DNA of 13,574 bases. Source: a virus (Duplodnaviria > Heunggongvirae > Uroviricota > Caudoviricetes). Positions 1-13,574 of this stretch are shown piece after piece. The notes under the pieces were generated by a model, which worked only from the letters and a program-made list of their open reading frames with translations, made no database searches and was not told the origin of the DNA. Location: positions 1 to 13,574 of the IMG/VR virus record IMGVR_UViG_2684622582_000008, one strand, 5' to 3'. The position numbers and the translations under genes are program-made. Positions within the stretch are counted from its first letter, which is position 1; the number at the start of each line of letters is the position of its first letter.

Positions 1-1038
1 CTACTTTTTCGACTCTTTATTCCACTGTAGCAAACCAGCGATATCCTTCTCGCCTTCGGCTTCTTTTAAGCGCCGTTGTTGTTCGGCAAACTGAACATAC
101 TCCGCCTGCGCTTTTTCATCGGCCATTTTCTTGCTGATTTTACCAGCGCCCTGTAGAACCTCTCGGTCGTTAAATTGCAGGAACTGATCCAGCTTATCCT
201 GCCAGTCGCGCAAAAAGACTTGCTGACGACGACGGGCCTGATCCTCGGCAAAGTCCAGCCACATATTAACCACGCGATTAAGTTCGCTGACCTCATCCTG
301 GGTGAGATAATTTTTTGCCACCGTCACGTCGCCCTTACGTACCTCTTCACCTTTATAACTGGTCAAGCCCATGTGCGGCTGGCTGGCATCTGCTCGTTTG
401 TGGATGAGTTCCGCAGCGGTATGCCCGGTACAGGCAAAATGCAGTTTATTCTGGATGGTTTGAAAAAATTGCGTGGTTTCTTTAAGCGATGGCTGATAGT
501 CGGCAGCTAAAGCAAAGATCTCCCGCACCCGCAAATATACCCGACGCTCGCTGGCGCGAATATCGCGGATGCGTTCAAGCATCTCATCAAAATAGTCGGG
601 CACAACCGATGAACCGACAGGCGGATTCTTCAGCCGCTCATCGTCCATCACAAAACCTTTGATCAGGTATTCCTGAAGCGTCTGGGTGGCCCACTGGCGG
701 AATTGCGTGCCTCGAGGCGAGCGAACGCGATAGCCGACAGCGAGAATGGCTTCGAGGTTGTAATGGTCTATCTCTCTGGAAACCTGACGTTTTCCTTCCT
801 GGCGAACTATCCGGAATTTCCGGATGGTTGAGTTTTGAACAAGTTCACCTTCGGAAAATATATTGATTAAATGTTCGTTAATAGTGCGAACATCTTTATC
901 GTACAGTTCAGCCATTGCCGCCTGGGATAACCAGATTGTGTCTGACTCAAAGCGACATTCAACACGCACTCTTCCGTCACCGCTGGCAAACATAATAAAC
1001 TCGCCTGCTGGGGGCTGGGTTAAGTCTTTGTCTGACAT
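1..1038 (-). CDS. rhuM: RhuM-family (virulence protein RhuM-like) protein, 345 aa; lies outside the satellite, next to the displaced selC 3' end
   Basis: Minus-strand ORF with TAG stop at 1-3. Preferred start is ATG at 1038 (MSDKDLTQ...), preceded by GGAGG 4 nt upstream. The longer ORF-track start at 1122 would run through the att repeat. Family call is from recalled similarity to RhuM proteins of selC-linked islands such as Salmonella SPI-3. Confidence 0.6.
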   Translation of the reverse strand: MSDKDLTQPPAGEFIMFASGDGRVRVECRFESDTIWLSQAAMAELYDKDVRTINEHLINIFSEGELVQNSTIRKFRIVRQEGKRQVSREIDHYNLEAILAVGYRVRSPRGTQFRQWATQTLQEYLIKGFVMDDERLKNPPVGSSVVPDYFDEMLERIRDIRASERRVYLRVREIFALAADYQPSLKETTQFFQTIQNKLHFACTGHTAAELIHKRADASQPHMGLTSYKGEEVRKGDVTVAKNYLTQDEVSELNRVVNMWLDFAEDQARRRQQVFLRDWQDKLDQFLQFNDREVLQGAGKISKKMADEKAQAEYVQFAEQQRRLKEAEGEKDIAGLLQWNKESKK

Positions 1039-1088
1039 GTCGCCTCCGAAGGAGTGTTGTTGACGTCGGGAGAGTTCAGGAGAGGCAT

Positions 1089-1111
1089 TTTGGCGGAAGA
1101 TCACAGGAGTC
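1089..1111. repeat. attR: displaced copy of the selC 3' end (direct repeat of 11803-11825)
   Basis: tggcggaagatcacaggagtc at 1091-1111 is identical to 11805-11825; the match extends 2 nt upstream (tt). Imperfect similarity continues into the element (caaaattgcc vs cgaacctgcc). Confidence 0.85.
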
Positions 1112-1233
1112 AAAATTGCCATATAACCACTTGATTCAAATCGTTTATATTTTTCTATTCTAATTCATTTATACACATCCTTATACATATAATATCTATC
1201 GATTAATTGTTACACGTATCTTCACGCACGTTA

Positions 1234-1540
1234 ACTCAGGAAAAAAATTTTTTTTCGGAAGAACTGTTCACACTGTTCACCTTTCTGTTTTCTCCTTTTA
1301 TTTCAGTTTGATAGGTGGTGAATAATGGGTGAAGGGTGAACATTCGATTCTTCACCTCCGGCATTCTGCCGGTGTGACTCATACCGGTGATTAATCCTCC
1401 GCACTGAAATCACTCAGGAAGAAAAAAGTTTTTTTGATTTGATTGTTCACACTGTTCACCTTTCGTTTTTCTCTTTTAATTTCAGTGTGATAACGGGTGA
1501 ATATACGGTGAAGGGTGAACAGTGGATTGTTCACCTTCGG
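1234..1540. repeat. crr-like cis replication region: two ~128-bp direct repeats (1234-1361 and 1412-1540), each with several TGTTCACC/GGTGAACA type-I-like iterons
   Basis: The two segments align almost base for base (actcaggaa...ttcacactgttcacctttc...ggtgaagggtgaaca...ttcacc). Octamers such as tgttcaca (1265-1272), tgttcacc (1274-1281) and ggtgaaca (1335-1342) are present. Position directly downstream of alpha matches P4 crr. Confidence 0.75.
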
Positions 1541-1554
1541 GGGATTCAGGGATG

Positions 1555-1578
1555 AAAAAAGACCGGCAGATGCCGGTC
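1555..1578 (-). terminator. Rho-independent terminator downstream of alpha
   Basis: Stem gaccggc/gccggtc (1561-1567 and 1572-1578) with a 4-nt loop. On the minus strand it is followed by a run of six T (complement of aaaaaa at 1555-1560), 17 nt past the alpha stop. Confidence 0.55.
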
Positions 1579-1594
1579 AGATGAGTCATGAGGG

Positions 1595-3928
1595 TCAGGT
1601 TGTTGCAGGGTCGTCACATTTTGGCAGCCAGTCGCCGTAGCTTTCCTCTTTCAGCGTCAGGTTGGTCTGTATCCCCTGTTTGGTATGGCGCTTCTCGTAA
1701 TTCAGCCCGTATTCCTTCAGCATCACCGGCAGCCCCAGCCCGAACATTTTCAGACTGAGTACATTCCGGTAGCCGTTTGCCTCCATGTAGGCCAGATAGG
1801 CGTGATAGAGGTATTTACGGTAATTACGCGGGATGATACTGGCGTTCCCCATATACATGCCGCTGGTCTGCGGCAGGGTTTCCAGATAGCCGATAAAATC
1901 AAACGTCGGGTCGGCATCCCGTTTGATGTTCAGTGCCTCGTCTGAGTTCTGCTGGGACTGAAGCAGTGACCGGGCGAGCATCGGGTCGCTGAATTTCTGC
2001 ATCAGGTGACGCACGATGACCGCCAGCTCGCGGGTGATTTTGTCCTTAAGCTGCGGGTCGCGCTCCTGCGGGGCTATCTGTTCCGGGAAGTGAATAATCA
2101 CCCGCCGGCGTGACACGCCGCCGCTGCGGTCGGTGAAGCGCATCGGGTTATTGTTCACGGCCAGAATCACCGCCGGGATATGCGTGGAGTACGCATCCCG
2201 GTATTTCGGGTCCACGGACACCGCATCGCCGCCGGTGATGGCCTTGAGTCCGGCACCGTCGCCGCTCCATTTTTCCTGGTCCGGCAGGCGTATCAGTGAG
2301 AAGCCAGTTAACGCGGCACGTTCACGCGGGGATTCCAGCGTCTCAATGGTGGCCGATGTGGCGTTATCCTCCCCGGCCAGCAGGGTGGCGATTTCGGCCA
2401 TGATACTTTTGCCGCTGCCGCCGGGACCGGTCACCTCCAGAAAGAGCTGCCAGTCGTAGCGGTTTGCCAGCACCATAAACAGTGCGGCCAGAATCACGTC
2501 GCGTTTTTCCGCACGGCCACCGGCGGCACGGTCAAGCCAGCGCCAGAACGCGGGGGCGTGGTTTTCCAGCGTTTCCCCTTCCACCGGCGGGGTGAAATCC
2601 ACATCGCACAGGGTGCGCATCCAGTGTGACGGACTGTGCAGGTGGAACGTGCCGTTCTGCGTGTCGAGCACGCCGTTACGAAAGCCAATCAGGCGGCGGG
2701 AGGGGGCTTCCTGCTGCGGAATAATCAGCTTCAGGGTGTCCACCACGGAGGCCACCTTCCCGGAGGAGAACGGCGCGCGCAGACGCTGAAACAGCCCGGC
2801 CACATCCCGGGCAAAGTCCTGTGGCGGCAGCATCTTCCAGACACCATTTTCATAGCGGGACAGAAGCTGGCCGTTGGCATCGACCGCGAGCGCCTCGCCG
2901 TAATGCTCATAGATACGCATGGCCTTTTCGCTGGTACTCATGGCGGAAAACTCCGCTTCGCTCATGGTGTCGAACGGGCTTTCAGCCGGTGGCCGGATGG
3001 CATCGTAAATGGCCTTACGGGTGGCCTCCCCGCCGTACTGCGTGAAGGCATCATTCCAGTCACCGAAGACCGGCGGCAGGGCAACAACGCCCTCACACGC
3101 ATCTGCGGCTGCGGCGGCTTTTTTCTGGCCGTCACCGCTGAGGTCACGGTCAGCAGCAAGGACAATCTGACAGGCCGGATGCTTCTGCCGGGCAAGGCTG
3201 GCCAGAGAAAGGAGGTTCACGGAAGAAAGCGCCACCATCACCGTTTCACCGGTCAGGTGATGTACGGTAAGTGCGGTCGCGTATCCCTCCGCTATCCACA
3301 GACGTTTTCCGGCCTGATTCTGTCCTTCAAGGATGTGACAGGTGCCCCTGACCTGTCCGCCTTTCAGGGTGCGCTTACGGCCGTCAGCACTGATTAACTG
3401 AAGGTTAACCAGTTCGCCGCTGTCGTCATACAGTGGCACCACAAGGTCACCGGCACGCCAGCTCACGCCACCGGCTCTGTGTGTGCCGGTCAGCATCCGG
3501 CATTCCCGGCCGGGAAAGCCCTTGCGGGTCAGGTAGGCGTTACCGGTTCCGGGACGGGTTTTCGCCATCAGGGTTTGTGCCAGTGCGGCGGCGTTCTTCC
3601 GGGCAGCGTCTGTTTCAGCAACGGCGGCGGCCGTCACTGCCGGGTCAGCCGGGGGCAGGCTGCCGGTCACGGCAGCCACCTTTGTGGCCGCGTCGGACGG
3701 GGAGACACCAAACACCTTTTCAACCAGTTTCAGGCCGTCACCGGCACCACACTGATTGCAGTACCAGGTGCCGCGCCCCTCCCTGTCATCAAAACGGAAG
3801 CGGTCACTCCCGCCACAGACCGGACAGGGCTGATGACGGTTTTTCAGCACCTGAATCCCCAGCGCCGGGAGGATACGCGGCCAGTGGCCGAGCGCATGGC
3901 TGACGGTGGCGGTTACGTTCATTTTCAT
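1595..3928 (-). CDS. alpha: P4 alpha-type primase-helicase (zinc-binding primase N-terminus, central/C-terminal P-loop helicase), 777 aa
   Basis: ATG at 3928 with GGAG upstream. N-terminal CPVCGG...WYCNQCG zinc-binding motif; Walker A GPGGSGKS; length equals P4 alpha (777 aa); flanked by crr iterons. Confidence 0.85.
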   Translation of the reverse strand: MKMNVTATVSHALGHWPRILPALGIQVLKNRHQPCPVCGGSDRFRFDDREGRGTWYCNQCGAGDGLKLVEKVFGVSPSDAATKVAAVTGSLPPADPAVTAAAVAETDAARKNAAALAQTLMAKTRPGTGNAYLTRKGFPGRECRMLTGTHRAGGVSWRAGDLVVPLYDDSGELVNLQLISADGRKRTLKGGQVRGTCHILEGQNQAGKRLWIAEGYATALTVHHLTGETVMVALSSVNLLSLASLARQKHPACQIVLAADRDLSGDGQKKAAAAADACEGVVALPPVFGDWNDAFTQYGGEATRKAIYDAIRPPAESPFDTMSEAEFSAMSTSEKAMRIYEHYGEALAVDANGQLLSRYENGVWKMLPPQDFARDVAGLFQRLRAPFSSGKVASVVDTLKLIIPQQEAPSRRLIGFRNGVLDTQNGTFHLHSPSHWMRTLCDVDFTPPVEGETLENHAPAFWRWLDRAAGGRAEKRDVILAALFMVLANRYDWQLFLEVTGPGGSGKSIMAEIATLLAGEDNATSATIETLESPRERAALTGFSLIRLPDQEKWSGDGAGLKAITGGDAVSVDPKYRDAYSTHIPAVILAVNNNPMRFTDRSGGVSRRRVIIHFPEQIAPQERDPQLKDKITRELAVIVRHLMQKFSDPMLARSLLQSQQNSDEALNIKRDADPTFDFIGYLETLPQTSGMYMGNASIIPRNYRKYLYHAYLAYMEANGYRNVLSLKMFGLGLPVMLKEYGLNYEKRHTKQGIQTNLTLKEESYGDWLPKCDDPATT

Positions 3929-3942
3929 GGTGTTGTTCTCCT

Positions 3943-4263
3943 TCAGTGCAGTACCGGCGCTTTTATGTGACGGGCACAGAGTTCATCCATCACAACCAGC
4001 CCGAGAAAGGACAGCGACGGCGCGGCCTTCAGGGGGCCGGATTCCATTAAATCTTCCAGCAGGGCACAGGCTATCTGACGCCCTTTTTCCTCACCGTGCT
4101 GGCGCAGATAAAAGCCTTCCAGCTCAGCGGCGATGGCCGCCTCCAGTGATTCAAGGGTGAGATGCGGGTAGCGGTGCTGACGTTCGCACACGGTCAGCCA
4201 GGCACAGGCGACAGCGCGACGGTAAAGGGCTGCGCGTAAGACGGGCGGTAAGGGGGTTTTCAT
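3943..4263 (-). CDS. cnr: P4 orf106-like small protein (possibly Cnr copy-number regulator), 106 aa
   Basis: ATG at 4263 preceded by GGGAGG. Ends 14 nt upstream of the alpha start, so it is in the operon. Size and position match P4 orf106; the cnr name is from memory and tentative. Confidence 0.5.
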
Positions 4264-4398
4264 TTGTTTTCCTCCCTGTGACAGATGACTGCATTCCGTG
4301 CCGGTTGCATTAACTGATAAGGCATATCTGCGTCTCCTGAAGACGTGCGTATCCCTGCGCGAATACGCACATTTAATTTTTCGGGTGTCGTTTTTTAA

Positions 4399-4854
4399 TT
4401 ACAGATAATTGCGGTAACTGTTATCCGGGGTGATTTCCGGGTCAGGCTCCGTGCGGGAAATTTCCCGCCATTCCCGCGCCACCGGTGCCGCCCGGCTGGC
4501 CGGAACAGTGTCCTGCGGGTAAATATCCAGATATTTCTCCCGCCATTTCTGTAATTCCGGGTCTCCGGCCATTTCTTTCAGTACCGCATGCCGGTTTACG
4601 GGGCTGCGTTTGAACAGGTCAGGACGGTCACAGGTAAATTCCCGCAGAAAACGCCCCAGCGGGATGTCTGTGGTGCGCCCGTCAGTGAGGATACGCACAA
4701 GGATACTGAATTTTCGGCGGTACGGGTTCCAGACAATTTCCGGACAGCGGTACGGCATTTCCCACGGAATACCGTCTTCCAGAATGCCGACCACGGCCAC
4801 ATCGGGAAAACCGGCAGAACGGTAAATCTCACCGGGCTGGGGAAAATCAAACAT
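4399..4854 (-). CDS. P4 orf151-like hypothetical protein, 151 aa
   Basis: ATG at 4854; start overlaps the stop of the upstream epsilon-like ORF by 8 nt (coupling). Size and position match P4 orf151. Confidence 0.6.
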   Translation of the reverse strand: MFDFPQPGEIYRSAGFPDVAVVGILEDGIPWEMPYRCPEIVWNPYRRKFSILVRILTDGRTTDIPLGRFLREFTCDRPDLFKRSPVNRHAVLKEMAGDPELQKWREKYLDIYPQDTVPASRAAPVAREWREISRTEPDPEITPDNSYRNYL

Positions 4855-5134
4855 GTGTCCTGTCTCCCCGGTCTTTCTGCTGGGCGAGAAAATCGCGGCA
4901 CAGGCCTTTGGCTTTCAGCTCATTCAGCACAAAATCAATATCTTCATTCAGGTAGCTGAAAATATGCGGAATGTAGAGCTGATGCAGGCCGGAGAGTTCA
5001 CGGTGAATCAAATCACCCCCAACAAACCGGGATACTGCGCTGGCGCGGTTGAGCTTATGGTAAGCCTCAATGCTGAGGTGTTCACGGGCGTCATGACGCG
5101 CTGAGACGGTCTGAGGGGCTTTTTTATTACGCAC
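4847..5134 (-). CDS. epsilon: Epsilon-like protein (P2-type helper derepressor), 95 aa if GTG start at 5134
   Basis: In-frame GTG at 5134 preceded by GGAGG (revcomp of cctcc at 5141-5145). Overlaps the stop of the upstream 65-aa ORF (GTGCGTAA). Alternative in-frame ATG starts at 5179 or 5215 cannot be excluded. Function inferred from position and size only. Confidence 0.5.
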
Positions 5135-5324
5135 GGGACACCTCCACCACCGGCAGACGGGCAGCAAGGGAGAGCACATAGTCACGGACAAGGGAACGGC
5201 GGGCGCTGCGTTCATCACCGGCGACGGTGCGAAGCATGCAGATACGGGGATGACGGTCTGCGCGACGGACAGCCGCAAACACAAAGACAAATTCAGGGTG
5301 TGAAGGGGTAAGGGTTGTAGCCAT
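5127..5324 (-). CDS. Small hypothetical protein (65 aa), first well-supported ORF after the leader
   Basis: ATG at 5324 with AAGGAGA 7 nt upstream; TAA stop at 5127. It is the C-terminal part of a longer open frame (5127-5762) that I do not accept as one gene. Confidence 0.45.
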
Positions 5325-5355
5325 AAGGCAGTCTCCTTCGAGTAGCAAATAACTG

Positions 5356-5619
5356 CTATCGCCGGAGTTCCTACGCTCGATGGCGATAGCCCAGACGGGG
5401 GTAGGAATACCGGCCTCGAAGAATACCGGCCAGCCCGGAGGCTGCCCCGCCTGAGCTACCATTGACTCAGTGGCATAACATGCGATTGCGAACAGGATCA
5501 TACCTGCACGGCAAACCACACGCCACACCATAATCTGGCGCTCTGTGGCGTTGATTGCGACACAAAAAAAGACGCATGGCGCGTCATATGTCGCCTTCGA
5601 GTTACACGGGTTCCTACGC
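5356..5619 (-). ncRNA. Candidate P4-type immunity leader (cI-like RNA with seqA/seqB/seqC-like elements)
   Basis: No RBS-supported ORF between the vis stop and 5324. gttcctacgc occurs twice (5367-5376 and 5610-5619); ggggtaggaat at 5397-5407 is near-complementary (8/10) to it. Hairpin ctatcgcc/ggcgatag (5356-5363 and 5382-5389). Order on the leftward transcript (copy, complement, copy) matches the P4 seqA-cI(seqB)-seqC layout. Confidence 0.35.
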
Positions 5620-5648
5620 CCGGCTGCCGATTTTGCGGCAGCGGAAAA

Positions 5649-5678
5649 ACTATATCCGCAAATGCCGGAAAAAGGCAA
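5649..5678 (-). promoter_or_regulatory. Candidate constitutive leftward promoter (PLE-like)
   Basis: On the minus strand: TTGCCT (-35; plus 5673-5678) and TATAGT (-10; plus 5649-5654) with 18-bp spacing, just downstream of vis. Confidence 0.3.
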
Positions 5679-5713
5679 GCCAGAAAAAGGGAGTTTTTGC
5701 AGAGCGGGCATCA

Positions 5714-5980
5714 TCATGCGTCGTACCCCCGTTTGCGTCCGGCAATGCGCCCGGCCATCCATGCGGTGATTTCAGAGTGCAGCCAGGCCACATTTTTACC
5801 GCCAAGACTCACCTGCGGCGGAAATTCCCCCTTACGGATGAGTTCGTAGATGGTCGAGCGTGACAGGCCGCACAGGTGCATCACTTCCGGCAGACGTAAA
5901 AAACGCTCCTGCGTGATGTCCGGCAGCGGCATCAGTGGCGTCACAGGGGCGGGAGACGGGGAAGAAAAAACAGCTTGCAT
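5714..5980 (-). CDS. vis: AlpA/Vis-family helix-turn-helix regulator/excisionase (P4 orf88 vis-like), 88 aa
   Basis: ATG at 5980 with GAGGT upstream. Segment [29 protein letters not shown]...[10 protein letters not shown] is typical of AlpA-family proteins. Length equals P4 orf88 (vis). Confidence 0.75.
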
Positions 5981-6081
5981 CGGGCTACCTCGTTAATGTC
6001 CATACAGCACCGGATAAGTCCGTCCGGCTTCGGGTAGCGCTTTATTTTGTGAATATTTTCAGCAGACGCAACAGGGGGATT

Positions 6082-6099
6082 TGTTCAGGCTGCCTTACA
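6082..6099 (-). promoter_or_regulatory. Delta/Ogr-type activator site (TGT-N12-ACA) of a leftward late promoter (PLL-like) upstream of vis
   Basis: tgt tcaggctgcctt aca at 6082-6099, centred about 110 bp upstream of the vis start. Confidence 0.5.
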
Positions 6100-6257
6100 A
6101 TGACTGTGTGTTTTTTATCCATCTGGACTGGAAGGGTCTCAAAGGGTTCTGAAGGACCTGGAATTTTTTATAGTGAAATACAAATTGTTTTTTCTTATTT
6201 ATTTCAGTGAATTAATAAAAATAAACAGTAGTAAACAGCACAAAAAGTCCATGAGCG

Positions 6258-6361
6258 GGTGAACAGTGGTGAACAGACGGTGAACAGTCATTACTGCGAT
6301 TGTTCACCCTTTAACTTACTGTATTACTTATCTTTTTTATTAAGGTGAACAGAGGTGAACA
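6258..6361. repeat. ori-like cluster of six type-I-like iterons (GGTGAACA/TGTTCACC)
   Basis: ggtgaaca at 6258-6265, 6268-6275, 6279-6286, 6344-6351 and 6354-6361; inverted tgttcacc at 6301-6308. Same octamer as in the crr-like repeats about 4.8 kb away. Confidence 0.7.
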
Positions 6362-6440
6362 GTAAAATATAAAAAAACAAACAGTAAGCCGGTTTTTCCT
6401 GCGACCTTTTCCTGGCTTGCCGGTGTGAGGATGAGTCTCC

Positions 6441-6458
6441 TGTGTCAGGGCTGGCACA
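6441..6458 (+). promoter_or_regulatory. Delta/Ogr-type activator site (TGT-N12-ACA) of Psid late promoter
   Basis: tgt gtcagggctggc aca at 6441-6458, centred about 80 bp upstream of the sid ATG (6531). Confidence 0.55.
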
Positions 6459-6530
6459 TCTGCAATGCGTCGTGTTGTTGTCCGGTGTACGTCACAATTT
6501 TCTTAACCTGAAGTGACGAGGAGCCGGAAA

Positions 6531-7265
6531 ATGTCTGACAACACCATCCCTGAATATCTGCAACCCGCGCTGGCACAACTGGAAAAGGCCAGAGCCGCCC
6601 ATCTTGAGAACGCCCGCCTGATGGATGAGACCGTCACGGCCATTGAACGGGCAGAGCAGGAAAAAAATGCGCTGGCGCAGGCCGACGGAAACGACGCTGA
6701 CGACTGGCGCACGGCCTTTCGTGCAGCCGGTGGTGTCCTGAGCGACGAGCTGAAACAGCGCCACATTGAGCGCGTGGCACGCCGGGAGCTGGTACAGGAA
6801 TATGACAATCTGGCCGTGGTGCTGAATTTCGAACGTGAACGCCTGAAAGGGGGGTGTGACAGCACGGCCACCGCCTACCGGAAGGCACATCATCACCTTC
6901 TGAGTCTGTATGCAGAGCATGAGCTGGAACACGCCCTGAATGAAACCTGTGAGGCGCTTGTCCGGGCAATGCATCTGAGCATTCTGGTACAGGAAAATCC
7001 GCTCGCCAACACCACCGGCCATCAGGGCTACGTCGCACCGGAAAAGGCTGTCATGCAGCAGGTGAAATCATCGCTGGAACAGAAAATTAAACAGATGCAA
7101 ATCAGCCTCACCGGCGAGCCGGTTCTCCGGCTGACCGGACTGTCAGCGGCAACACTCCCGCACATGGATTATGAGGTGGCAGGCACACCGGCACAGCGCA
7201 AGGTGTGGCAGGACAAAATAGACCAGCAGGGAGCAGAGCTTAAGGCCAGAGGACTGCTGTCATGA
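6531..7265 (+). CDS. sid: Sid-like capsid size-determination (external scaffold) protein, 244 aa
   Basis: ATG at 6531 with GAGGAG 8 nt upstream (the ORF-track GTG at 6513 has no RBS). Length equals P4 Sid; first gene of the sid-delta-psu operon. Confidence 0.8.
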   Translation: MSDNTIPEYLQPALAQLEKARAAHLENARLMDETVTAIERAEQEKNALAQADGNDADDWRTAFRAAGGVLSDELKQRHIERVARRELVQEYDNLAVVLNFERERLKGGCDSTATAYRKAHHHLLSLYAEHELEHALNETCEALVRAMHLSILVQENPLANTTGHQGYVAPEKAVMQQVKSSLEQKIKQMQISLTGEPVLRLTGLSAATLPHMDYEVAGTPAQRKVWQDKIDQQGAELKARGLLS

Positions 7266-7762
7266 TTTACTGCCCGTCGTGTGGACATGTTGCTCACACC
7301 CGTCGCGCACATTTCATGGACGATGGCACCAAGATAATGATTGCACAGTGCCGGAATATTTATTGCTCTGCGACATTTGAAGCGAGTGAAAGCTTTTTCT
7401 CTGACAGTAAAGATTCAGGAATGGAATACATTTCAGGCAAACAGAGATACCGCGATTCACTGACGTCAGCCTCCGGCAGTATGAAACGCCCGAAAAGAAT
7501 GCTTGTTACCGGATATTGTTGTCGGAGATGTAAAGGCCTTGCACTGTCAAGAACATCGCGGCGTCTGTCTCAGGAAGTCACCGAGCGTTTTTATGTGTGC
7601 ACGGATCCGGGCTGTGGTCTGGTGTTTAAAACGCTTCAGACCATCAACCGTTTCATTGTCCGCCCGGTCACGCCGGACGAACTGGCAGAAAGCCTGCATG
7701 AAAAACAGGAACTGCCGCCAGTACGCTTAAAAACACAATCATATTCGCTGCGTCTGGAATGA
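7262..7762 (+). CDS. delta: Delta-like late transcriptional activator (tandem Ogr-type zinc-finger domains), 166 aa
   Basis: ATG overlaps the sid stop (ATGA). CPSCGH...C..C and a second C..CC..C...C..C cysteine cluster are consistent with duplicated Ogr-like zinc fingers. Length equals P4 Delta. Confidence 0.8.
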   Translation: MIYCPSCGHVAHTRRAHFMDDGTKIMIAQCRNIYCSATFEASESFFSDSKDSGMEYISGKQRYRDSLTSASGSMKRPKRMLVTGYCCRRCKGLALSRTSRRLSQEVTERFYVCTDPGCGLVFKTLQTINRFIVRPVTPDELAESLHEKQELPPVRLKTQSYSLRLE

Positions 7763-7835
7763 GGGCTGCCGGTTAACACCGGCCGTCGCCGCACACCGTA
7801 TTTTTATTCTTCAGCATGATGAGAAAGAGATAACG

Positions 7836-8408
7836 ATGGAAAGCACAGCCTTACAGCAGGCCTTTGACACCTGTCAGAATAACAAAGCAGCATGGCTGCA
7901 ACGCAAAAATGAGCTGGCAGCGGCCGAACAGGAATATCTGCGGCTTCTGTCAGGAGAAGGCAGAAACGTCAGTCGCCTGGACGAATTACGCAATATTATC
8001 GAAGTCAGAAAATGGCAGGTGAATCAGGCCGCTGGTCGTTATATTCGTTCGCATGAAGCCGTTCAGCACATCAGCATCCGCGACCGGCTGAATGATTTTA
8101 TGCAGCAGCACGGCACAGCACTGGCGGCGGCACTGGCACCGGAGCTGATGGGCTACAGTGAGCTGACGGCCATTGCCCGAAACTGTGCCATACAGCGTGC
8201 CACAGATGCCCTGCGTGAAGCCCTCCTGTCCTGGCTTGCGAAGGGGGAAAAAATTAATTATTCCGCACAGGATAGCGACATTTTAACGACCATCGGATTC
8301 AGGCCTGACGCGGCTTCGGTGGATGACAGCCGTGAAAAATTCACCCCTGCGCAGAACATGATTTTTTCGCGTAAAAGTGCGCAACTGGCATCACGTCAGT
8401 CTGTGTAA
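7836..8408 (+). CDS. psu: Psu-like polarity suppression protein (Rho antagonist / capsid decoration), 190 aa
   Basis: Third gene of the late operon; length equals P4 Psu; N-terminus MESTALQQAFDTCQNN matches my recollection of P4 Psu. Confidence 0.8.
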   Translation: MESTALQQAFDTCQNNKAAWLQRKNELAAAEQEYLRLLSGEGRNVSRLDELRNIIEVRKWQVNQAAGRYIRSHEAVQHISIRDRLNDFMQQHGTALAAALAPELMGYSELTAIARNCAIQRATDALREALLSWLAKGEKINYSAQDSDILTTIGFRPDAASVDDSREKFTPAQNMIFSRKSAQLASRQSV

Positions 8409-8444
8409 AATTCCCCGAAAATCCGCCTGTTTTTACTGAAAAAA

Positions 8445-8483
8445 GCCATGCATCGATAAGGTGCATGGCTTTGCATGCGTTTT
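8445..8483 (+). terminator. Candidate terminator after psu
   Basis: Stem gccatgca/tgcatggc (8445-8452 and 8462-8469) followed by a T-rich tract tttgcatgcgtttt. Confidence 0.4.
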
Positions 8484-8572
8484 CCTGCCTCATTTTCTGC
8501 AGACCGCGCCATTCCCGGCGCGGCCTGAGCGTGTCAGTGAAACTGCATTAAAACCGCCCCGCAAAGCGGGCG

Positions 8573-8591
8573 GGCGAGGCGGGGAAAGCAC
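8573..8591. other. cos-like cohesive-end site (P2/P4-type 19-mer)
   Basis: ggcgaggcggggaaagcac matches the P2/P4 cohesive-end sequence as I recall it; it lies between psu and the cargo gene, as in P4. Confidence 0.65.
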
Positions 8592-8620
8592 TGCGCGCAT
8601 GTATGCAGGAAATAACCTGA

Positions 8621-8666
8621 CTCTCCAGCCAGAGAAAGAAACTGAACTGGAGAGTTTTTTGTTTTT
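8621..8666. terminator. Stem-loop with flanking T/A tracts between cos and the cargo gene
   Basis: ctctccag (8621-8628) pairs with ctggagag (8647-8654), followed by ttttttgttttt (8655-8666). It sits about 25 nt past the stop of the minus-strand cargo gene. Confidence 0.35.
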
Positions 8667-8678
8667 ACATGGATGTGT

Positions 8679-10439
8679 TCAGTTTTTATTTATGAATGAA
8701 ATACTGTTCTCTAGTGACTCCTTTACTTTTTTCACGGTGTTTTTTAACTCAATAATGGCTCCGCGACGAAAAGAAATTGAAAGTTCATTCAGGTAAGAAT
8801 TTAAGAACTCATCTAGTTTTTTTAGATGAGGTAGCTCGTTAGATAGATAATCGCGAAGGTTAGAAAAGTTGTATACAGATAATAGATGGTCTGAAAACAT
8901 TTGAATATCGTAAATGGACCAATTATGTTGTATGGCACTTATGATTAAATTTACATCTAAAGTTTCCAGTGCTTTAAACTTGAAATCTGAATGATATATA
9001 TCCATATCGATAGTGGTCCAACCATCGTTAACCATCTTGTTTTTTAATTCTTCTATTCTTTCTCTTTTTGTTATGTTAATATATTTGTCAACAAAAAAGT
9101 TATATAAATTATCTCCATCATGTTTTAGCATATTTAGTGGGATGTCATTGATGTTTGGCACGGTTTTATGAAAATATGATTTTATTTCATCGTCACTGAA
9201 GCTAAGTTTGCTTTGATTAATGGTGTCTTCATCTAGGGTGTTTATATGAGGTATATATTCATATTTTGAGAGTCTAATATAGTTATTCGTGGCAATTAAC
9301 CATGTAGATAGATCTGGAGAATTTGATTTTAAAATTGTTTTTATTATTTCTTCCTGATAGTCATGTTCAGATATGTTATATAACTCAGGTCTTAATAATC
9401 CAGCATAATCATTTCTCTTGGGAGGGGTATTGTCAGTAAAAACATATGGAAGAATGTCTTTATGCGAAATTGCATTAAAACAATATGGAGCCATTTTATT
9501 ATTATAGTTTTTGTATGCACTAATACTTAATAAATTGTTTTCTTCTTCACTTATTTCATTGTGTTCGTTTTCTGGTGTGGTTGAAATTGTTTTGAGTGAT
9601 GATGAAACAAAATTTTCACGAAACTCATTTTCCTTATAGTTGAATTTTTCCTTAAGTATTATATGTGCACACAATGAGCTTACTAAATTTTTAATATCTA
9701 TATCAGAGATATCTCTGTCTTGCGTTGTTTGTTCAAACAACGGTAGGAGTTTTACAATGACTCTATTAATGATTCGGATATTTGTTTCTTCGAAATCTAT
9801 AATTACTTGCTTAATGATGTCTCTATAATTTTCTTGTATTTTCTCAAGCTTTTTATCTAAAATGTCAGAAAGATTGTTTATAGAAAAGTATACCTCGTCG
9901 CTAATAACTTTTTCTTTATGATTCAATACCTCATTGCTTTGTTTTGAAAAATTACCAACTAAAATATAGTCTAACATCTTGTTATTTTGATAATTTTGTA
10001 AGCAAAAGGTTGCTATTTCATCTCGCAAATTTTGAGGTATACGTTCTAGATCATCAATAATAAAAACTCCTGAAAGATCTTTTAATACATAATGTTGCAT
10101 TGCCCCTGCAAATGTTGATATTATTTTTCCAGTAAACTTCCCAGTGCTTTCTTCTTTAGTAATAGCTGTGGTTACATTTGATGCTAACTCTGTAATTATT
10201 TCTATATCGGGTGGATTCTCTAAATAAGTTACACTCAACACCTTGTCTTTAAAATCTTGCAAACTATTTAATCCAAGCACAGATATATAAAATTGAGTTT
10301 TGTTGGAATAATATTGCTTAAATTCATTTTGAAGGAAGAATGTTTTACCAACCCCCCACTCACCGTTTAACAAAATTAGACCTTCACGTTTTTCATTTAG
10401 TAATCTAATTAAAACAGATATTATTGTGTTTTTATCCAT
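8679..10439 (-). CDS. KAP-family-like P-loop NTPase with large uncharacterised C-terminal region, 586 aa; candidate anti-phage defence cargo in the P4 hotspot
   Basis: ATG at 10439 with AAGGAG upstream. Walker A GEWGVGKT (GxWGxGKT type) and Walker B VFIIDDLER (hhhhDDL[DE]R type) in the first ~135 aa. Very AT-rich compared with the P4 backbone. Occupies the gop/beta/cII position between cos and int. Confidence 0.7.
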   Translation of the reverse strand: MDKNTIISVLIRLLNEKREGLILLNGEWGVGKTFFLQNEFKQYYSNKTQFYISVLGLNSLQDFKDKVLSVTYLENPPDIEIITELASNVTTAITKEESTGKFTGKIISTFAGAMQHYVLKDLSGVFIIDDLERIPQNLRDEIATFCLQNYQNNKMLDYILVGNFSKQSNEVLNHKEKVISDEVYFSINNLSDILDKKLEKIQENYRDIIKQVIIDFEETNIRIINRVIVKLLPLFEQTTQDRDISDIDIKNLVSSLCAHIILKEKFNYKENEFRENFVSSSLKTISTTPENEHNEISEEENNLLSISAYKNYNNKMAPYCFNAISHKDILPYVFTDNTPPKRNDYAGLLRPELYNISEHDYQEEIIKTILKSNSPDLSTWLIATNNYIRLSKYEYIPHINTLDEDTINQSKLSFSDDEIKSYFHKTVPNINDIPLNMLKHDGDNLYNFFVDKYINITKRERIEELKNKMVNDGWTTIDMDIYHSDFKFKALETLDVNLIISAIQHNWSIYDIQMFSDHLLSVYNFSNLRDYLSNELPHLKKLDEFLNSYLNELSISFRRGAIIELKNTVKKVKESLENSISFINKN

Positions 10440-10469
10440 AAAATACTCCTTTTAGTAATTATAATTAAC

Positions 10470-11642
10470 TCAATCTGCTGGATAAATAAAGTCACTATAC
10501 CATTGTAACATCTTTAATCTTTTCTCTAAATATTGAGCATGATTATATGTTCCCCTAATGCTATTTTTATCAACATGAGCTAGTTGCATTTCAATCCATG
10601 CACTATCAAAACCTTGTTCATGTAGTATTGTCGACATTGTATGTCTAAACCCGTGGCCTGTTGCACGTCCCTTATAACCAAGTAATTCGATCACTTGTGA
10701 TATACTTTCTTTAGAAATTGGTTTAGTACGATTATTACGTCCAATAAATATATAAGGATAATGGCTAGAGATGGGTTTTAATTGATTAAATAGGGTAATC
10801 ACTTGAGATGATAAAGGTACAAGGTGAGGCCGACGCATTTTCATGCGTTCTGCTGGTATTTCCCATATTCCTTTTTCTAAATTGACTTCTTCCCATGTGG
10901 CAAAACGCAGCTCTTGTGTTCTTACTCCGGTAAGCATCACAATCTTGGTTGCATTTTTAGTGATTATGCTGCCAGTGTAAGCCTCCAGATCTTTGACAAA
11001 ATAAGGGAGTTCTTCTGCTGATAGAAAAGGATGATGTTTTTGCTTCGGTACAGCTAATGCGATAGCTAAATCAGGTGCTGGATTGTATTCAGCACGGCCA
11101 GTGATGATCGCGTAGCGAAACACCTCTCCGCATCGTTGACGTACTTTTCTGGTTTTCTCCAACGCTCCACGTTTTTCTATGCGTTTAAGTACTTCAAGCA
11201 GTTCTAGGGGTTTAATTTCAGCTATTGGCCGTTTACCAATGAAAGGAAAAACATCCTGTTCAAATGTTTTAATAATTTCTTCGCGATAAGCTAGAGTCCA
11301 ACGATCTGCTTTTGCTGCGTGCCATTCTCTGCTAACTGCCTCAAAAGAGGTTTCAATTGATAATTTCTGAGCAATTTTCTGAGCCTTACGTTCTTCTACT
11401 GGATCAATGCCGTTTGCAACCTGTTTACGTGCCGTATCGCGTTTCTCACGTGCTTCTGCGAGGCTTACTAAATCATAGCTGCCAAATGACATTAACCGCG
11501 CTTTCCCAGCAAATCTGAAACGGAAACGCCAGCCTTTCGAGCCATCTGGATTGATAAGCAACGACAGACCTTGTCCATCGTTCAATGTGTATGGCTTGTC
11601 TTGTGGTTTTGCACGTTTGATCTGTATATCGGTTAGAGCCAT
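10470..11642 (-). CDS. int: Tyrosine site-specific integrase (P4/CP4-57-like family), 390 aa
   Basis: N-terminus MALTDIQIKRAKPQDKPYTL...WRFRFRF is typical of P4-family integrases. C-terminal catalytic region GHGFRHT...LAHVDKNSIRGTYNH. Lies adjacent to tRNA-Sec. AT-rich. Weak RBS. Confidence 0.85.
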   Translation of the reverse strand: MALTDIQIKRAKPQDKPYTLNDGQGLSLLINPDGSKGWRFRFRFAGKARLMSFGSYDLVSLAEAREKRDTARKQVANGIDPVEERKAQKIAQKLSIETSFEAVSREWHAAKADRWTLAYREEIIKTFEQDVFPFIGKRPIAEIKPLELLEVLKRIEKRGALEKTRKVRQRCGEVFRYAIITGRAEYNPAPDLAIALAVPKQKHHPFLSAEELPYFVKDLEAYTGSIITKNATKIVMLTGVRTQELRFATWEEVNLEKGIWEIPAERMKMRRPHLVPLSSQVITLFNQLKPISSHYPYIFIGRNNRTKPISKESISQVIELLGYKGRATGHGFRHTMSTILHEQGFDSAWIEMQLAHVDKNSIRGTYNHAQYLEKRLKMLQWYSDFIYPAD

Positions 11643-11804
11643 GTGTATAACTGAAAACTACGTATAAAAAATCTATACACATTACTATACATATTTTTCG
11701 CGGATTCAGGGAGATGAACTCGGACTATTACGGATAAGATGATTATTCATCGTATTGAATACAAAGGGTTTTATGGAGCGTCTCGGAACTGGCTGGATGA
11801 AGTT

Positions 11805-11899
11805 TGGCGGAAGATCACAGGAGTCGAACCTGCCCGGGACCGCTGGCGGCCCCAACTGGATTTGAAGTCCAGCCGCCTCACCGGAGACGACGATCTTCC
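11805..11899 (-). tRNA. selC: tRNA-Sec (selenocysteine tRNA), intact; its 3' end forms attL
   Basis: The reverse complement of 11805-11899 reads GGAAGATCGTCGTCTCCGGTGAGGCGGCTGGACTTCAAATCCAGTTGGGGCCGCCAGCGGTCCCGGGCAGGTTCGACTCCTGTGATCTTCCGCCA, matching E. coli selC as recalled, including the long variable arm and CCA end. Confidence 0.9.
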
Positions 11900-12191
11900 G
11901 CGCCTCGATTGCTACATGGAGGCGGGGCGCATTATAGCTACTTCCTTGAGTTTCTACATCCCCCAGATCAGTTTTTTCCGCCTAATACACGCAGCGTATT
12001 ATCACGAAAGCATTATAGTTCATATAAAAATCATATTTTACAATGATATATGAGCGAAATTAACGCTACCACGATCACATAAAACAAGAATCATAAATTA
12101 ATAACCAGATATCGGAATATTCGCTCTCGCAGGGATGGTTTACAAAATGCGTTATCGGTCTCAGCACCCCTATAGCATCAAGGAAAAGCAG

Positions 12192-13574
12192 ATGAAGAGT
12201 GAAGTGTTGTCCGTTAAAGAGAAAATTGGTTATGGCATGGGAGACGCCGCCAGCCACATTATTTTCGATAACGTAATGTTATATATGATGTTCTTTTATA
12301 CCGATATTTTTGGCATTCCTGCCGGATTTGTCGGAACCATGTTTTTGGTCGCTCGTGCACTGGATGCGATTTCCGATCCTTGCATGGGGTTGTTGGCCGA
12401 TCGAACGCGCTCTCGCTGGGGTAAATTTCGGCCGTGGGTGCTGTTTGGCGCACTGCCATTCGGGATCGTCTGTGTACTGGCCTATAGCACGCCAGATCTC
12501 AGTATGAACGGAAAAATGATTTATGCAGCAATTACTTACACCCTACTTACCTTACTTTATACCATCGTCAATATCCCTTACTGCGCATTGGGTGGTGTAA
12601 TCACCAATGACCCGACTCAGCGTATCTCGCTGCAATCCTGGCGTTTTGTGCTGGCGACCGCGGGAGGCATGCTCTCTACTGTTCTGATGATGCCACTGGT
12701 TAATTTAATTGGTGGTGATAATAAACCACTCGGTTTCCAGGGCGGTATCGCGGTCCTTTCCGTGGTGGCATTTATGATGCTGGCATTCTGTTTCTTCACC
12801 ACTAAAGAACGCGTTGAAGCACCACCTACAACGACGTCTATGCGGGATGATTTACGTGATATCTGGCAAAACGACCAGTGGCGTATTGTCGGTTTCCTGA
12901 CAATTTTCAATATCCTGGCGGTGTGCGTACGCGGTGGGGCGATGATGTATTACGTCACATGGATTTTGGGTACGCCGGAAGTGTTTGTCGCTTTTCTCAC
13001 CACTTATTGCGTGGGTAACCTGATTGGCTCCGCACTGGCAAAACCGCTGACCGACTGGAAATGTAAAGTCACTATCTTCTGGTGGACGAACGCCCTGCTG
13101 GCAGTGATTAGCCTCGCGATGTTCTTTGTTCCTATGCAGGCCAGCATCACCATGTTTGTCTTCATCTTCGTGATTGGTGTGTTGCATCAACTGGTGACAC
13201 CTATCCAGTGGGTAATGATGTCCGATACCGTCGACTACGGCGAGTGGTGTAATGGTAAACGCCTGACCGGGATCAGTTTTGCTGGCACGCTGTTTGTGCT
13301 CAAACTGGGGTTGGCCTTCGGTGGTGCCCTTATCGGCTGGATGCTGGCTTATGGCGGATATGATGCGGCAGAAAAAGCGCAGAACAGCGTCACAATTAGC
13401 ATCATTATCGCGCTATTCACGATTGTTCCGGCGATCTGTTACTTGCTGAGCGCGATTATCGCTAAACGCTACTACTCGCTCACGACGCACAATCTGAAAA
13501 CCGTTATGGAACAGCTGGCGCAGGGCAAACGCCGTTGCCAGCAACAATTCACCTCTCAAGAAGTGCAGAACTAA
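12192..13574 (+). CDS. yicJ: GPH-family (glycoside-pentoside-hexuronide:cation symporter) inner-membrane transporter, 460 aa
   Basis: ATG at 12192 with AGGAAAAG upstream (the ORF-track start at 12135 has no RBS). GYGMGD...D..R.RWGKFRPW GPH signature; many hydrophobic segments. Identity as yicJ is inferred from the selC-adjacent position in E. coli K-12. Confidence 0.7.
   Translation: MKSEVLSVKEKIGYGMGDAASHIIFDNVMLYMMFFYTDIFGIPAGFVGTMFLVARALDAISDPCMGLLADRTRSRWGKFRPWVLFGALPFGIVCVLAYSTPDLSMNGKMIYAAITYTLLTLLYTIVNIPYCALGGVITNDPTQRISLQSWRFVLATAGGMLSTVLMMPLVNLIGGDNKPLGFQGGIAVLSVVAFMMLAFCFFTTKERVEAPPTTTSMRDDLRDIWQNDQWRIVGFLTIFNILAVCVRGGAMMYYVTWILGTPEVFVAFLTTYCVGNLIGSALAKPLTDWKCKVTIFWWTNALLAVISLAMFFVPMQASITMFVFIFVIGVLHQLVTPIQWVMMSDTVDYGEWCNGKRLTGISFAGTLFVLKLGLAFGGALIGWMLAYGGYDAAEKAQNSVTISIIIALFTIVPAICYLLSAIIAKRYYSLTTHNLKTVMEQLAQGKRRCQQQFTSQEVQN

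Follow-up and report, generated by a model that had tools for sequence, protein, structure and literature searches.

The tRNA gene selC, which encodes tRNA-Sec, is occupied in the E. coli-type chromosomal DNA studied here, and the question raised by this locus is whether the occupant is phage P4 itself at another site, a satellite assembled from different parts, or something else. The window, i.e., the whole stretch of 13,574 nucleotides that we analyzed, corresponds to positions 1 to 13,574 of a Caudoviricetes record of IMG/VR (IMGVR_UViG_2684622582_000008). The original prediction, made from the sequence alone, had described positions 1089-11825 as a near-complete P4-type satellite prophage at selC, apparently mobilisable by a P2-like helper. 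We now read the element as a complete P4-like satellite at selC, made of two blocks in mosaic, with a P4-style life cycle and a cargo gene that is most likely anti-phage. We put the probability of this joint reading at about 0.85. To judge from the alignments, the first block, which runs from the cis replication region (crr) to cos, is the replication, regulation and hijacking backbone of P4 at 97% identity, and the second, which runs from just beyond cos to the attachment (att) site, is a selC-specific integrase accompanied by a single cargo gene of low guanine-cytosine (GC) content.

Precise integration in selC

The element lies between exact 23-bp direct repeats, at 1089-1111 (attL core) and 11803-11825 (attR core), which give a precise insertion size of 10,714 bp. 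Around 1.3e-6 exact pairs of 23-mers are expected by chance. The repeat is composed of the final 21 nt of tRNA-Sec, including CCA, plus 2 nt. Its attR copy is the 3' end of an intact tRNA-Sec gene (11805-11899, minus strand; 83.8 bits with the tRNA-Sec model), and its attL copy is the displaced 3' end of selC. We joined in silico the two flanks (window 701-1111 and 11826-12300) and used the product as an empty-site query in 5,426 complete genomes of E. coli. We found the joined flanks unbroken, with an identity of 100.0%, in two E. coli strains (95-3322 and 09A19CPO009), and the query was matched at a coverage of at least 80% in 789 of the 5426 genomes. Integration at selC is thus established by genome comparison, since the empty site exists elsewhere, in addition to the evidence of the repeats. 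At least 75 complete E. coli genomes have in selC an element that covers at least 80% of the window, and relatives in E. coli and Mangrovibacter have the same att core in duplicate, with the copies 10.4-11.4 kb apart. The locus therefore has the three marks of such an integration: an att core made of a tRNA 3' end, the duplication of this core at both ends, and an exact empty site. It had been correctly predicted that the site was tRNA-Sec and not a leucine tRNA, and that the repeat was of 21-23 bp.

The element is of a common type, known as a kind (P4-like elements in selC have been known since the retronphage phiR73, in 1991), and this particular instance has been catalogued too. In strain EC19, the locus has a RefSeq annotation (98.2% identity, covering 92% of the window), and the exact integrase and cargo proteins are found on 919 and 894 public contigs, respectively. 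A contig of 3,653 bp (CABTZI010000154.1), binned in a metagenome-assembled genome of "uncultured Streptococcus sp.", carries yicJ with this integrase and this cargo at 100% identity, and is almost certainly a mis-binned E. coli contig. An 11.8-kb metagenome contig with the cargo was considered as a candidate excised form and rejected, as it is an integrated locus with yicJ and yicI.

Two other reading frames touch the borders. A gene of the RhuM family is found directly outside attL (window 1-1122, minus strand; Pfam 4.5e-118; PADLOC candidate PDC-S05, 2.8e-173). Its open reading frame (ORF), as called, extends 27 codons through the att core, and the true start is probably the ATG at 1041, which has GGAGG ahead of it. 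This rhuM gene is not part of the element, because it stays beside selC at empty sites. At the other end, an ORF of 104 aa (11739-12053, plus strand) overlaps tRNA-Sec and attR on the opposite strand and was considered spurious.

The P4 backbone

Among 50,697 phage records searched with megablast, P4 (X51522 / NC_001609) was the sole extensive match, with 97.4% identity over 68% of the interval. One single alignment pairs positions 1242-8572 of the window with positions 4291-11624 of P4 at 97.36% identity and runs on into P4 1-27. The collinear identity spans 7.36 kb, from crr through psu and cos. The list of ORFs has frames of 777, 106, 151, 88, 166 and 190 aa in the order of P4. The protein identities given below come from tblastn searches with the P4 proteins, all of which matched over their full length and without gaps. 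We found alpha, orf106, orf151, epsilon, vis, sid, delta and psu all free of frameshifts and stops.

Five of these genes are on the minus strand. Alpha (1595-3928) encodes the primase-helicase and origin-binding replication protein of 777 aa, which is 98.7% identical to P4 alpha and has Zn-ribbon, Toprim, D5_N, DUF5906 and Pox_D5 domains. It is followed by orf106 (3943-4263; 106 aa), which is 100% identical to P4 ORF106, matches DUF5375 (E 3e-63) and which we take to be the P4 copy-number gene cnr, and by orf151 (4399-4854; 96.7% to P4 ORF151), which matches phrog_10748. The helper derepression protein epsilon (4847-5134, with the frame at 4850-5134; 95 aa and a stop) is 100% identical to that of P4. 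The fifth gene is vis, also called orf88 (5714-5980), which encodes an excisionase of the AlpA family that is also a regulator of the late promoter. Its product is 97.7% identical to P4 Vis, from which it differs by two conservative substitutions (V30L and V71I), and it matches Phage_AlpA (E 4e-21). The remaining three genes are on the plus strand. Sid (6531-7265), the external scaffold for small capsids, has 244 aa when counted from the ATG at 6531, inside a frame of 250 aa, and is 99.2% identical to P4 Sid. Delta (7262-7762; 166 aa; 98.2%) is the zinc-finger transactivator of late genes of the Ogr/Delta type, in which the Ogr_Delta domain was matched in two stretches. Finally, psu (7836-8408; 190 aa; 99.5%) encodes the capsid decoration protein and Rho inhibitor, with a Psu domain at E 1e-88.

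The cis sites of P4 are also present. The crr (1243-1540, plus strand) is homologous to P4 crr 4291-4590 and comprises two direct repeats of about 120 bp with type-1 iterons; each repeat is 119 bp long (1243-1361 and 1422-1540). The ori (6258-6361) has six exact type-1 iterons, TGTTCACC, at positions matching P4 9310-9413. Counting the five copies in crr, there are 11 exact copies of this iteron, for 0.41 expected. The cos region (8531-8598), which is common to P2-like helpers, has its 19-nt cohesive end at 8573-8591, where the 19-mer GGCGAGGCGGGGAAAGCAC is exact. Like the att cores and arms, ori and cos were recorded without a strand. A block of 64-68 bp around cos is 88-94% identical to P2 and its relatives, and is the sole part of the element that also matches P2-family phages. 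At 8599, 8 bp beyond the cohesive end, the homology to P4 stops, and it is regained only at crr, beyond the att sites.

The original prediction had thus rightly listed the sizes and order of the backbone genes, the two iteron clusters, the cos 19-mer, and the absence of frameshifts and stops in alpha, int and sid. It had proposed an alignment with P4 in which low identity would have spoken against it, and we obtained 97.4% at the DNA level and 97-100% at the protein level. Two of its terms were too cautious. The gene called "epsilon-like" is indeed there and is epsilon itself, and "near-complete" undersells the element, since all seven core components of such satellites are present and only non-essential cargo of P4 has been replaced. 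What it omitted or understated is the non-P4 integrase, the absence of gop, beta and cII, and the cargo of 586 aa.

The GC content of the backbone is 0.55. There is a 9-bp insertion (AGTCATGAG) relative to P4 at 1584-1592, between the terminator and the stop codon of alpha. The mismatches to P4 concentrate in two places, 5400-5600 and 6000-6200.

The immunity RNA and its targets

The CI immunity RNA, a member of the C4 family of Rfam (RF01695; 74.4 bits, E 2e-13), is encoded at 5379-5466 on the minus strand, with its seqB loops at around 5403-5425. Its targets are on the same strand. The upstream one, in the leader of the PLE transcript (5565-5655, with seqA at 5597-5615), is matched by the isrK (RF01394, 72.3 bits) and c4-a1b1 (RF03163, 49.1 bits) models, and the downstream one, seqC, is at 5331-5372. 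The RNA differs from that of P4 by seven base changes spread across its two loops. The alignment with P4 revealed that both loop segments and both target regions were altered together, the changes in seqC matching those in seqB. In P4 the target boxes are GTGAGAA and TTCACAGG, and the loop segments of the RNA are TTCTCAC and CCTGTGAA. In the window, the target boxes are GTAGGAA and CTCGAAGG, and the loop segments are TTCCTAC and CTTCGAG.

The computed stabilities follow the same pattern. The cognate duplexes of the window have -39.0 kcal/mol (seqA) and -38.3 kcal/mol (seqC), and those of P4 have -41.6 and -40.8 kcal/mol. Cross-pairings between the window and P4 range from -25.5 to -26.6 kcal/mol (-26.6 for seqA; -25.8 for seqC with the seqB of P4), so that cognate duplexes are more stable by about 13 kcal/mol. 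The locus has both features expected of antisense-RNA immunity of the C4/CI type, a structured C4 RNA and loops complementary to upstream and downstream targets. The matched changes at three sites argue for a working immunity circuit, and the pairings predict that the element is heteroimmune to P4.

The integrase and the att arms

The integrase gene (10470-11642, minus strand) encodes a selC-specific tyrosine recombinase of 390 aa that is only 36% identical to P4 Int. Its three domains, Arm-DNA-bind_3 (PF13356), Phage_int_M (PF22022) and Phage_integrase (PF00589), each scored above threshold, the motifs with the catalytic residues were located (R241, H330, R333, H356 and Y366), and the frame has no frameshifts or stops. 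Integrases 82-90% identical to it are found in satellites linked to selC in Klebsiella, Serratia, Shimwellia and Mangrovibacter.

The alpha-side arm of att (1112-1241) has no homology to P4 and carries two candidate arm-type sites for Int, TATACACAT at 1170-1178 and TATACATAT at 1182-1190. The int-side arm (11643-11802) has three candidates, at 11641-11649 (minus strand), 11674-11682 and 11686-11694. The motif TATACAYAT occurs five times in the window, for 0.15 expected, and all copies are within around 160 bp of the att cores. The int-side blocks are kept across four genera, among them Klebsiella, Serratia and Mangrovibacter, while the neighbouring sequence diverges. These repeats are thus putative arm-type sites of Int.

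The cargo gene

Between psu and int there is a single gene, the cargo (8679-10439, minus strand), which encodes a KAP-family P-loop NTPase of 586 aa, a candidate single-gene anti-phage protein. Its GC content is 0.29. The matches to AAA_22 (30.9 bits) and KAP_NTPase (PF07693; 22.1 bits, which is marginal given the cut-off of 20) cover residues 5-160. Residues of the Walker A motif (G26, G29, G31, K32 and T33) and of a DD-L-E-R Walker B motif (D129, D130, E132 and R133) are invariant among 26 homologues. The full-length AlphaFold model (predicted local distance difference test, pLDDT, 76; predicted template modelling score, pTM, 0.46) has a P-loop domain, a disordered insert of low confidence at 74-117, and an all-helical remainder. 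We found no transmembrane helix, the highest Kyte-Doolittle mean over 19 residues being 1.18; such helices are frequent in the KAP family without being universal.

Foldseek against PDB gave weak matches to ORC/Cdc6 (template modelling score around 0.18), the sequence search of PDB gave nothing, NCBIfam gave only noise, and tblastn against the 50,697 phage records gave no match. PHROGs assigns the protein to a family of unknown function. A word-index search found 49 homologues of about 587 aa; of those assigned to a named organism, all belong to Enterobacterales. When 1.84 billion representatives were searched with a profile, there were 90 clusters at E <= 1e-30, mostly full length (575-610 aa).

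In Klebsiella, Serratia, Shimwellia and Mangrovibacter, a homologue 53-65% identical to the cargo is always directly downstream of the same type of integrase, in the same slot between int and psu of P4-like satellites, the hijacking genes of which are far more diverged (29-65% for sid). Hence, in the satellites examined from five enterobacterial genera, the cargo homologues are tightly linked downstream of a selC-type integrase. Within E. coli, the cargo sequence is found in 14 genomes and the int allele, at 95% identity or more, in 15, and the two therefore appear to travel together. We compared two E. coli alleles, that of this element and that of APEC E16002. The ratio of non-synonymous to synonymous substitution rates (dN/dS, or omega) of the cargo is 0.20 with a synonymous rate (dS) of 0.33, and for the same pair dS is 0.047 in alpha and 0.035 in sid. 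The cargo is thus a gene under purifying selection with a history unlike that of the backbone, because its dN/dS is 0.20 and its dS is far above those of alpha and sid. The sequence comparisons suggest that int and cargo are exchanged together as one block, a breakpoint of which lies 8 bp beyond the cohesive end of cos.

The cargo start is separated from the int stop by only 30 bp (10440-10469), on the same strand. The cargo may be co-transcribed with int, or it may have its own promoter. A sequence TTTAGA-17-TACAAT with an extended -10 TG, inside the 3' end of int (10502-10530), is a candidate promoter only, and a scan of 8400-12200 for promoters and terminators found such sites no more often than in shuffled sequence.

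The cos-adjacent site between psu and int is the defence hotspot described by Rousset et al. 2022 (PMC9122126), and the cargo is found exactly there. The cargo of strain EC19 is 99.8% identical to that of the window at the DNA level, and its protein (WP_000360276) is listed in Table S1A of the same study as a single-gene "AAA_22" locus, outside the validated systems (PMC9122126). KAP NTPases fused to C-terminal regions of unknown function have been found experimentally to be anti-phage, with both parts required (PMC13552941), and "Reve", a single-gene ATPase/KAP system from the P4 hotspot, was validated in 2026 (PMC13586616).

Two loci of Serratia have further genes beyond alpha. One has a BrxR/WYL regulator, and the other has a protein of the STM3845 family with a reverse transcriptase. 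PMC13586616 mentions a secondary defence hotspot between alpha and att, which these genes fit. In the flank examined at these two loci, we found no second att core.

Proposed life cycle and helper sensing

The steps of the life cycle that we propose are taken from established P4 biology. Recombination by Int between the 23-bp core of attP and the end of selC identical to it would have restored the tRNA gene, the displaced copy remaining at the opposite end of the element. In lysogeny, the CI RNA would pair with seqA and seqC in the early transcript, with a specificity unlike that of P4. In the presence of a P2-family helper, the Cox of the helper and/or its Ogr, together with the delta of the satellite, would fire PLL and Psid. 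Excision by Vis and Int would then be followed by replication by alpha from ori and crr. Epsilon would derepress the helper prophage, Sid would force the assembly of small capsids, which Psu would decorate, and the helper terminase would cut at cos and package the 10.7-kb genome. This genome is 92% of the length of P4 (11.6 kb), a size that falls among those of viable deletion derivatives of P4. In this scheme, the element would be mobilisable by a P2-like helper, as had been predicted.

The region where helper sensing takes place differs from that of P4. The Cox boxes of P2 have the consensus TTAAA(G/C)NC(A/C) (PMC3936717). What has been called the "ori type-2 repeats" of P4 (9176-9205) corresponds to three matches to this box phased by 10 bp, at 9180, 9190 and 9200, with 0, 0 and 1 mismatch. 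At the equivalent position upstream of PLL, the window has repeats that are also phased by 10 bp (6126-6165, plus strand), of a different sequence, with the units GAAGGGTCTC, AAAGGGTTCT and GAAGGACCTG in place of the Cox boxes. A stretch of 101 bp around them (6100-6200) is 74% identical to P4, compared with 97.4% overall. This variant allele is found in 278 of the 5426 complete E. coli genomes (around 5%). When searched with blastn in the phage collection for a source, it matched only P4 itself, at 74%. Beside the phased repeats, a TGT-N12-ACA site, presumably the delta/Ogr site, is conserved except for one change in its spacer. The simplest reading of these sequences is that the element has been retuned to the Cox of another helper. 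If this common lineage indeed owes its induction to the Cox of another P2-family helper, the choice of helper would be a swappable cis module.

Several observations weigh against a functional satellite with a defensive cargo. First, Vis is of the P4 type and the att arms are not. We sought in P4 and in the window k-mers common to the PLL region and the att arms, which could be Vis boxes, and found only A/T-rich or single weak matches, such that none was recognisable. Second, the window has at the position upstream of PLL no P2 Cox box within 1 mismatch. The Cox of W-phi binds other repeats and is reported to be unable to activate P4 (PMC5009727). P2 itself is thus an uncertain inducer, because the Cox boxes are replaced and a non-cognate Cox such as that of W-phi fails on P4. 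Third, the attP junction (GAAGTTTGGCGGAAGATCACAGGAGTCAAAATTGCC), an exact 36-mer spanning the int-side arm, the core and the alpha-side arm, had no match in viral, metagenome or genome contigs; such an exact query is strict, which makes this weak negative evidence. Concerning the cargo, PADLOC 2.0 gave no significant full-length defence model, only the candidate PDC-S49 (2e-12) for the N-terminal half, and structure models and fold searches revealed no effector fold. Its assignment as a single-gene anti-phage protein acting in the lysogen draws on position and architecture; we regard it as likely. A fuller version, to which we give even odds, is that the cargo is a soluble single-gene anti-phage NTPase with no recognisable effector domain, acting through its NTPase and the helical-repeat C-terminal half, e.g., by binding a phage protein and sequestering it, and that the swapped repeats perhaps answer to the Cox of a different helper.

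Competing explanations

The three first observations are also what one would expect of a domesticated and immobile P4-like remnant, kept for its cargo, in which genes look intact and either excision or helper sensing has been lost. The attP junction was missing from all three contig collections, the P2-type Cox boxes are gone, and Vis, but not the att arms, is of the P4 type. Still, all ORFs and cis sites are intact, and alpha and sid are under purifying selection between the two E. coli alleles (omega of 0.085 and 0.26, respectively). The immunity RNA and its two targets have co-varied, which requires a working circuit, and occupied and exactly empty selC sites are both common in E. coli. The 10-bp phasing is maintained in the altered Cox-box allele, which 278 genomes carry, and this looks like retuning and not like decay. 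We thus consider a remnant unlikely.

The site itself could suggest a non-satellite genomic island of the kind of LEE, PAI-I or SPI-3 that merely contains phage-like genes, since selC is a known hotspot of islands (PMC6174562) and a rhuM gene of the island type lies directly outside the element. However, the seven core components of P4, cos, ori and crr are all between the att repeats and in the order of P4, and rhuM lies beyond the repeat and is still there when the site is empty. The match to the P4 backbone and the empty-site comparison led us to reject this very improbable explanation. It is even less credible that this is simply phage P4 whose own integrase has been redirected to selC. 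The backbone is 97.4% identical to P4, but the integrase is a different one, the stretches 8600-11802 and 1112-1241 are without DNA homology to P4, no match to gop, beta or cII was obtained, and the immunity determinants and the Cox boxes differ. P4 sensu stricto was rejected because homology covers only P4 4291-11624 and 1-27. A chance resemblance of the ORFs was rejected as well. We thus return to the complete satellite. Judging by the comparison with P4, it is a mosaic and not a relocated P4, as it departs from P4 in its int/att module, cargo, immunity specificity and Cox-responsive repeats.

In its general features this is a textbook satellite, and its interest is that of a well-delimited example of the modular assembly of P4-like elements: a nearly invariant hijacking backbone and an exchangeable block of integrase and cargo that would start 8 bp beyond the cohesive end of cos. 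The cargo represents a family of proteins of about 580 aa in a class of loci where most previously untested genes proved to be defences. The immunity RNA and its targets provide a clean natural example of a switch of specificity by RNA-RNA covariation. The replaced Cox boxes, being in around 5% of the complete E. coli genomes, offer a direct route to asking which helpers induce which satellites.

Comparison with known systems

The closest known element is P4. The two have in common the gene order, the eight backbone proteins (at 97-100% identity), crr, the type-1 iterons of ori, the presumed delta/Ogr site and the cos 19-mer. They differ in the integration site, which is a leucine tRNA gene in P4 and selC here, with a different Int, and in the genes carried, a KAP NTPase replacing gop, beta and cII. 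In addition, seqA, seqB and seqC have changed together, and the P2 Cox boxes upstream of PLL have been replaced.

Phage phiR73 depends on P2 as a helper and is heteroimmune to P4. According to the titles of the original articles (Sun, Inouye and Inouye 1991; Inouye et al. 1991), as cited in PMC6174562 and PMC8628076, it is a P4-like prophage in the selenocysteine tRNA gene of E. coli. The likeness, drawn from these titles, is that both are P4-like prophages at selC. They differ in that phiR73 carries the retron Ec73 (reverse transcriptase and msr/msd), whereas we found in our element neither a match to RVT_1 nor a retron RNA of Rfam.

The cargo resembles EF_KAP (PMC13552941), PifA of F and, to judge from its description, Reve (PMC13586616), in that all have an N-terminal NTPase of the KAP type followed by around 300 residues with no known domain, encoded by a single gene on a mobile element. 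EF_KAP has two transmembrane helices, whereas the cargo has none. Apart from the partial PDC-S49 match, we detected no relation in sequence between the cargo and catalogued defence proteins.

Finally, the Type A P4-like satellites are defined by seven core components: int, psu, delta, sid, alpA/vis, epsilon and alpha (de Sousa and Rocha 2021, PMC8628076). We identified all seven with Pfam and tblastn. Their arrangement is the conserved, majority one of Type A, namely int - [hotspot/cos] - psu - delta - sid - alpA - epsilon - alpha, att being placed between alpha and int when the element is circular, and the cos is of the kind common to P2-family helpers. Integrases are often exchanged in the P4-like family (PMC8628076). 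We found no structural difference between our element and this family, and in both the variable locus is directly beside cos.

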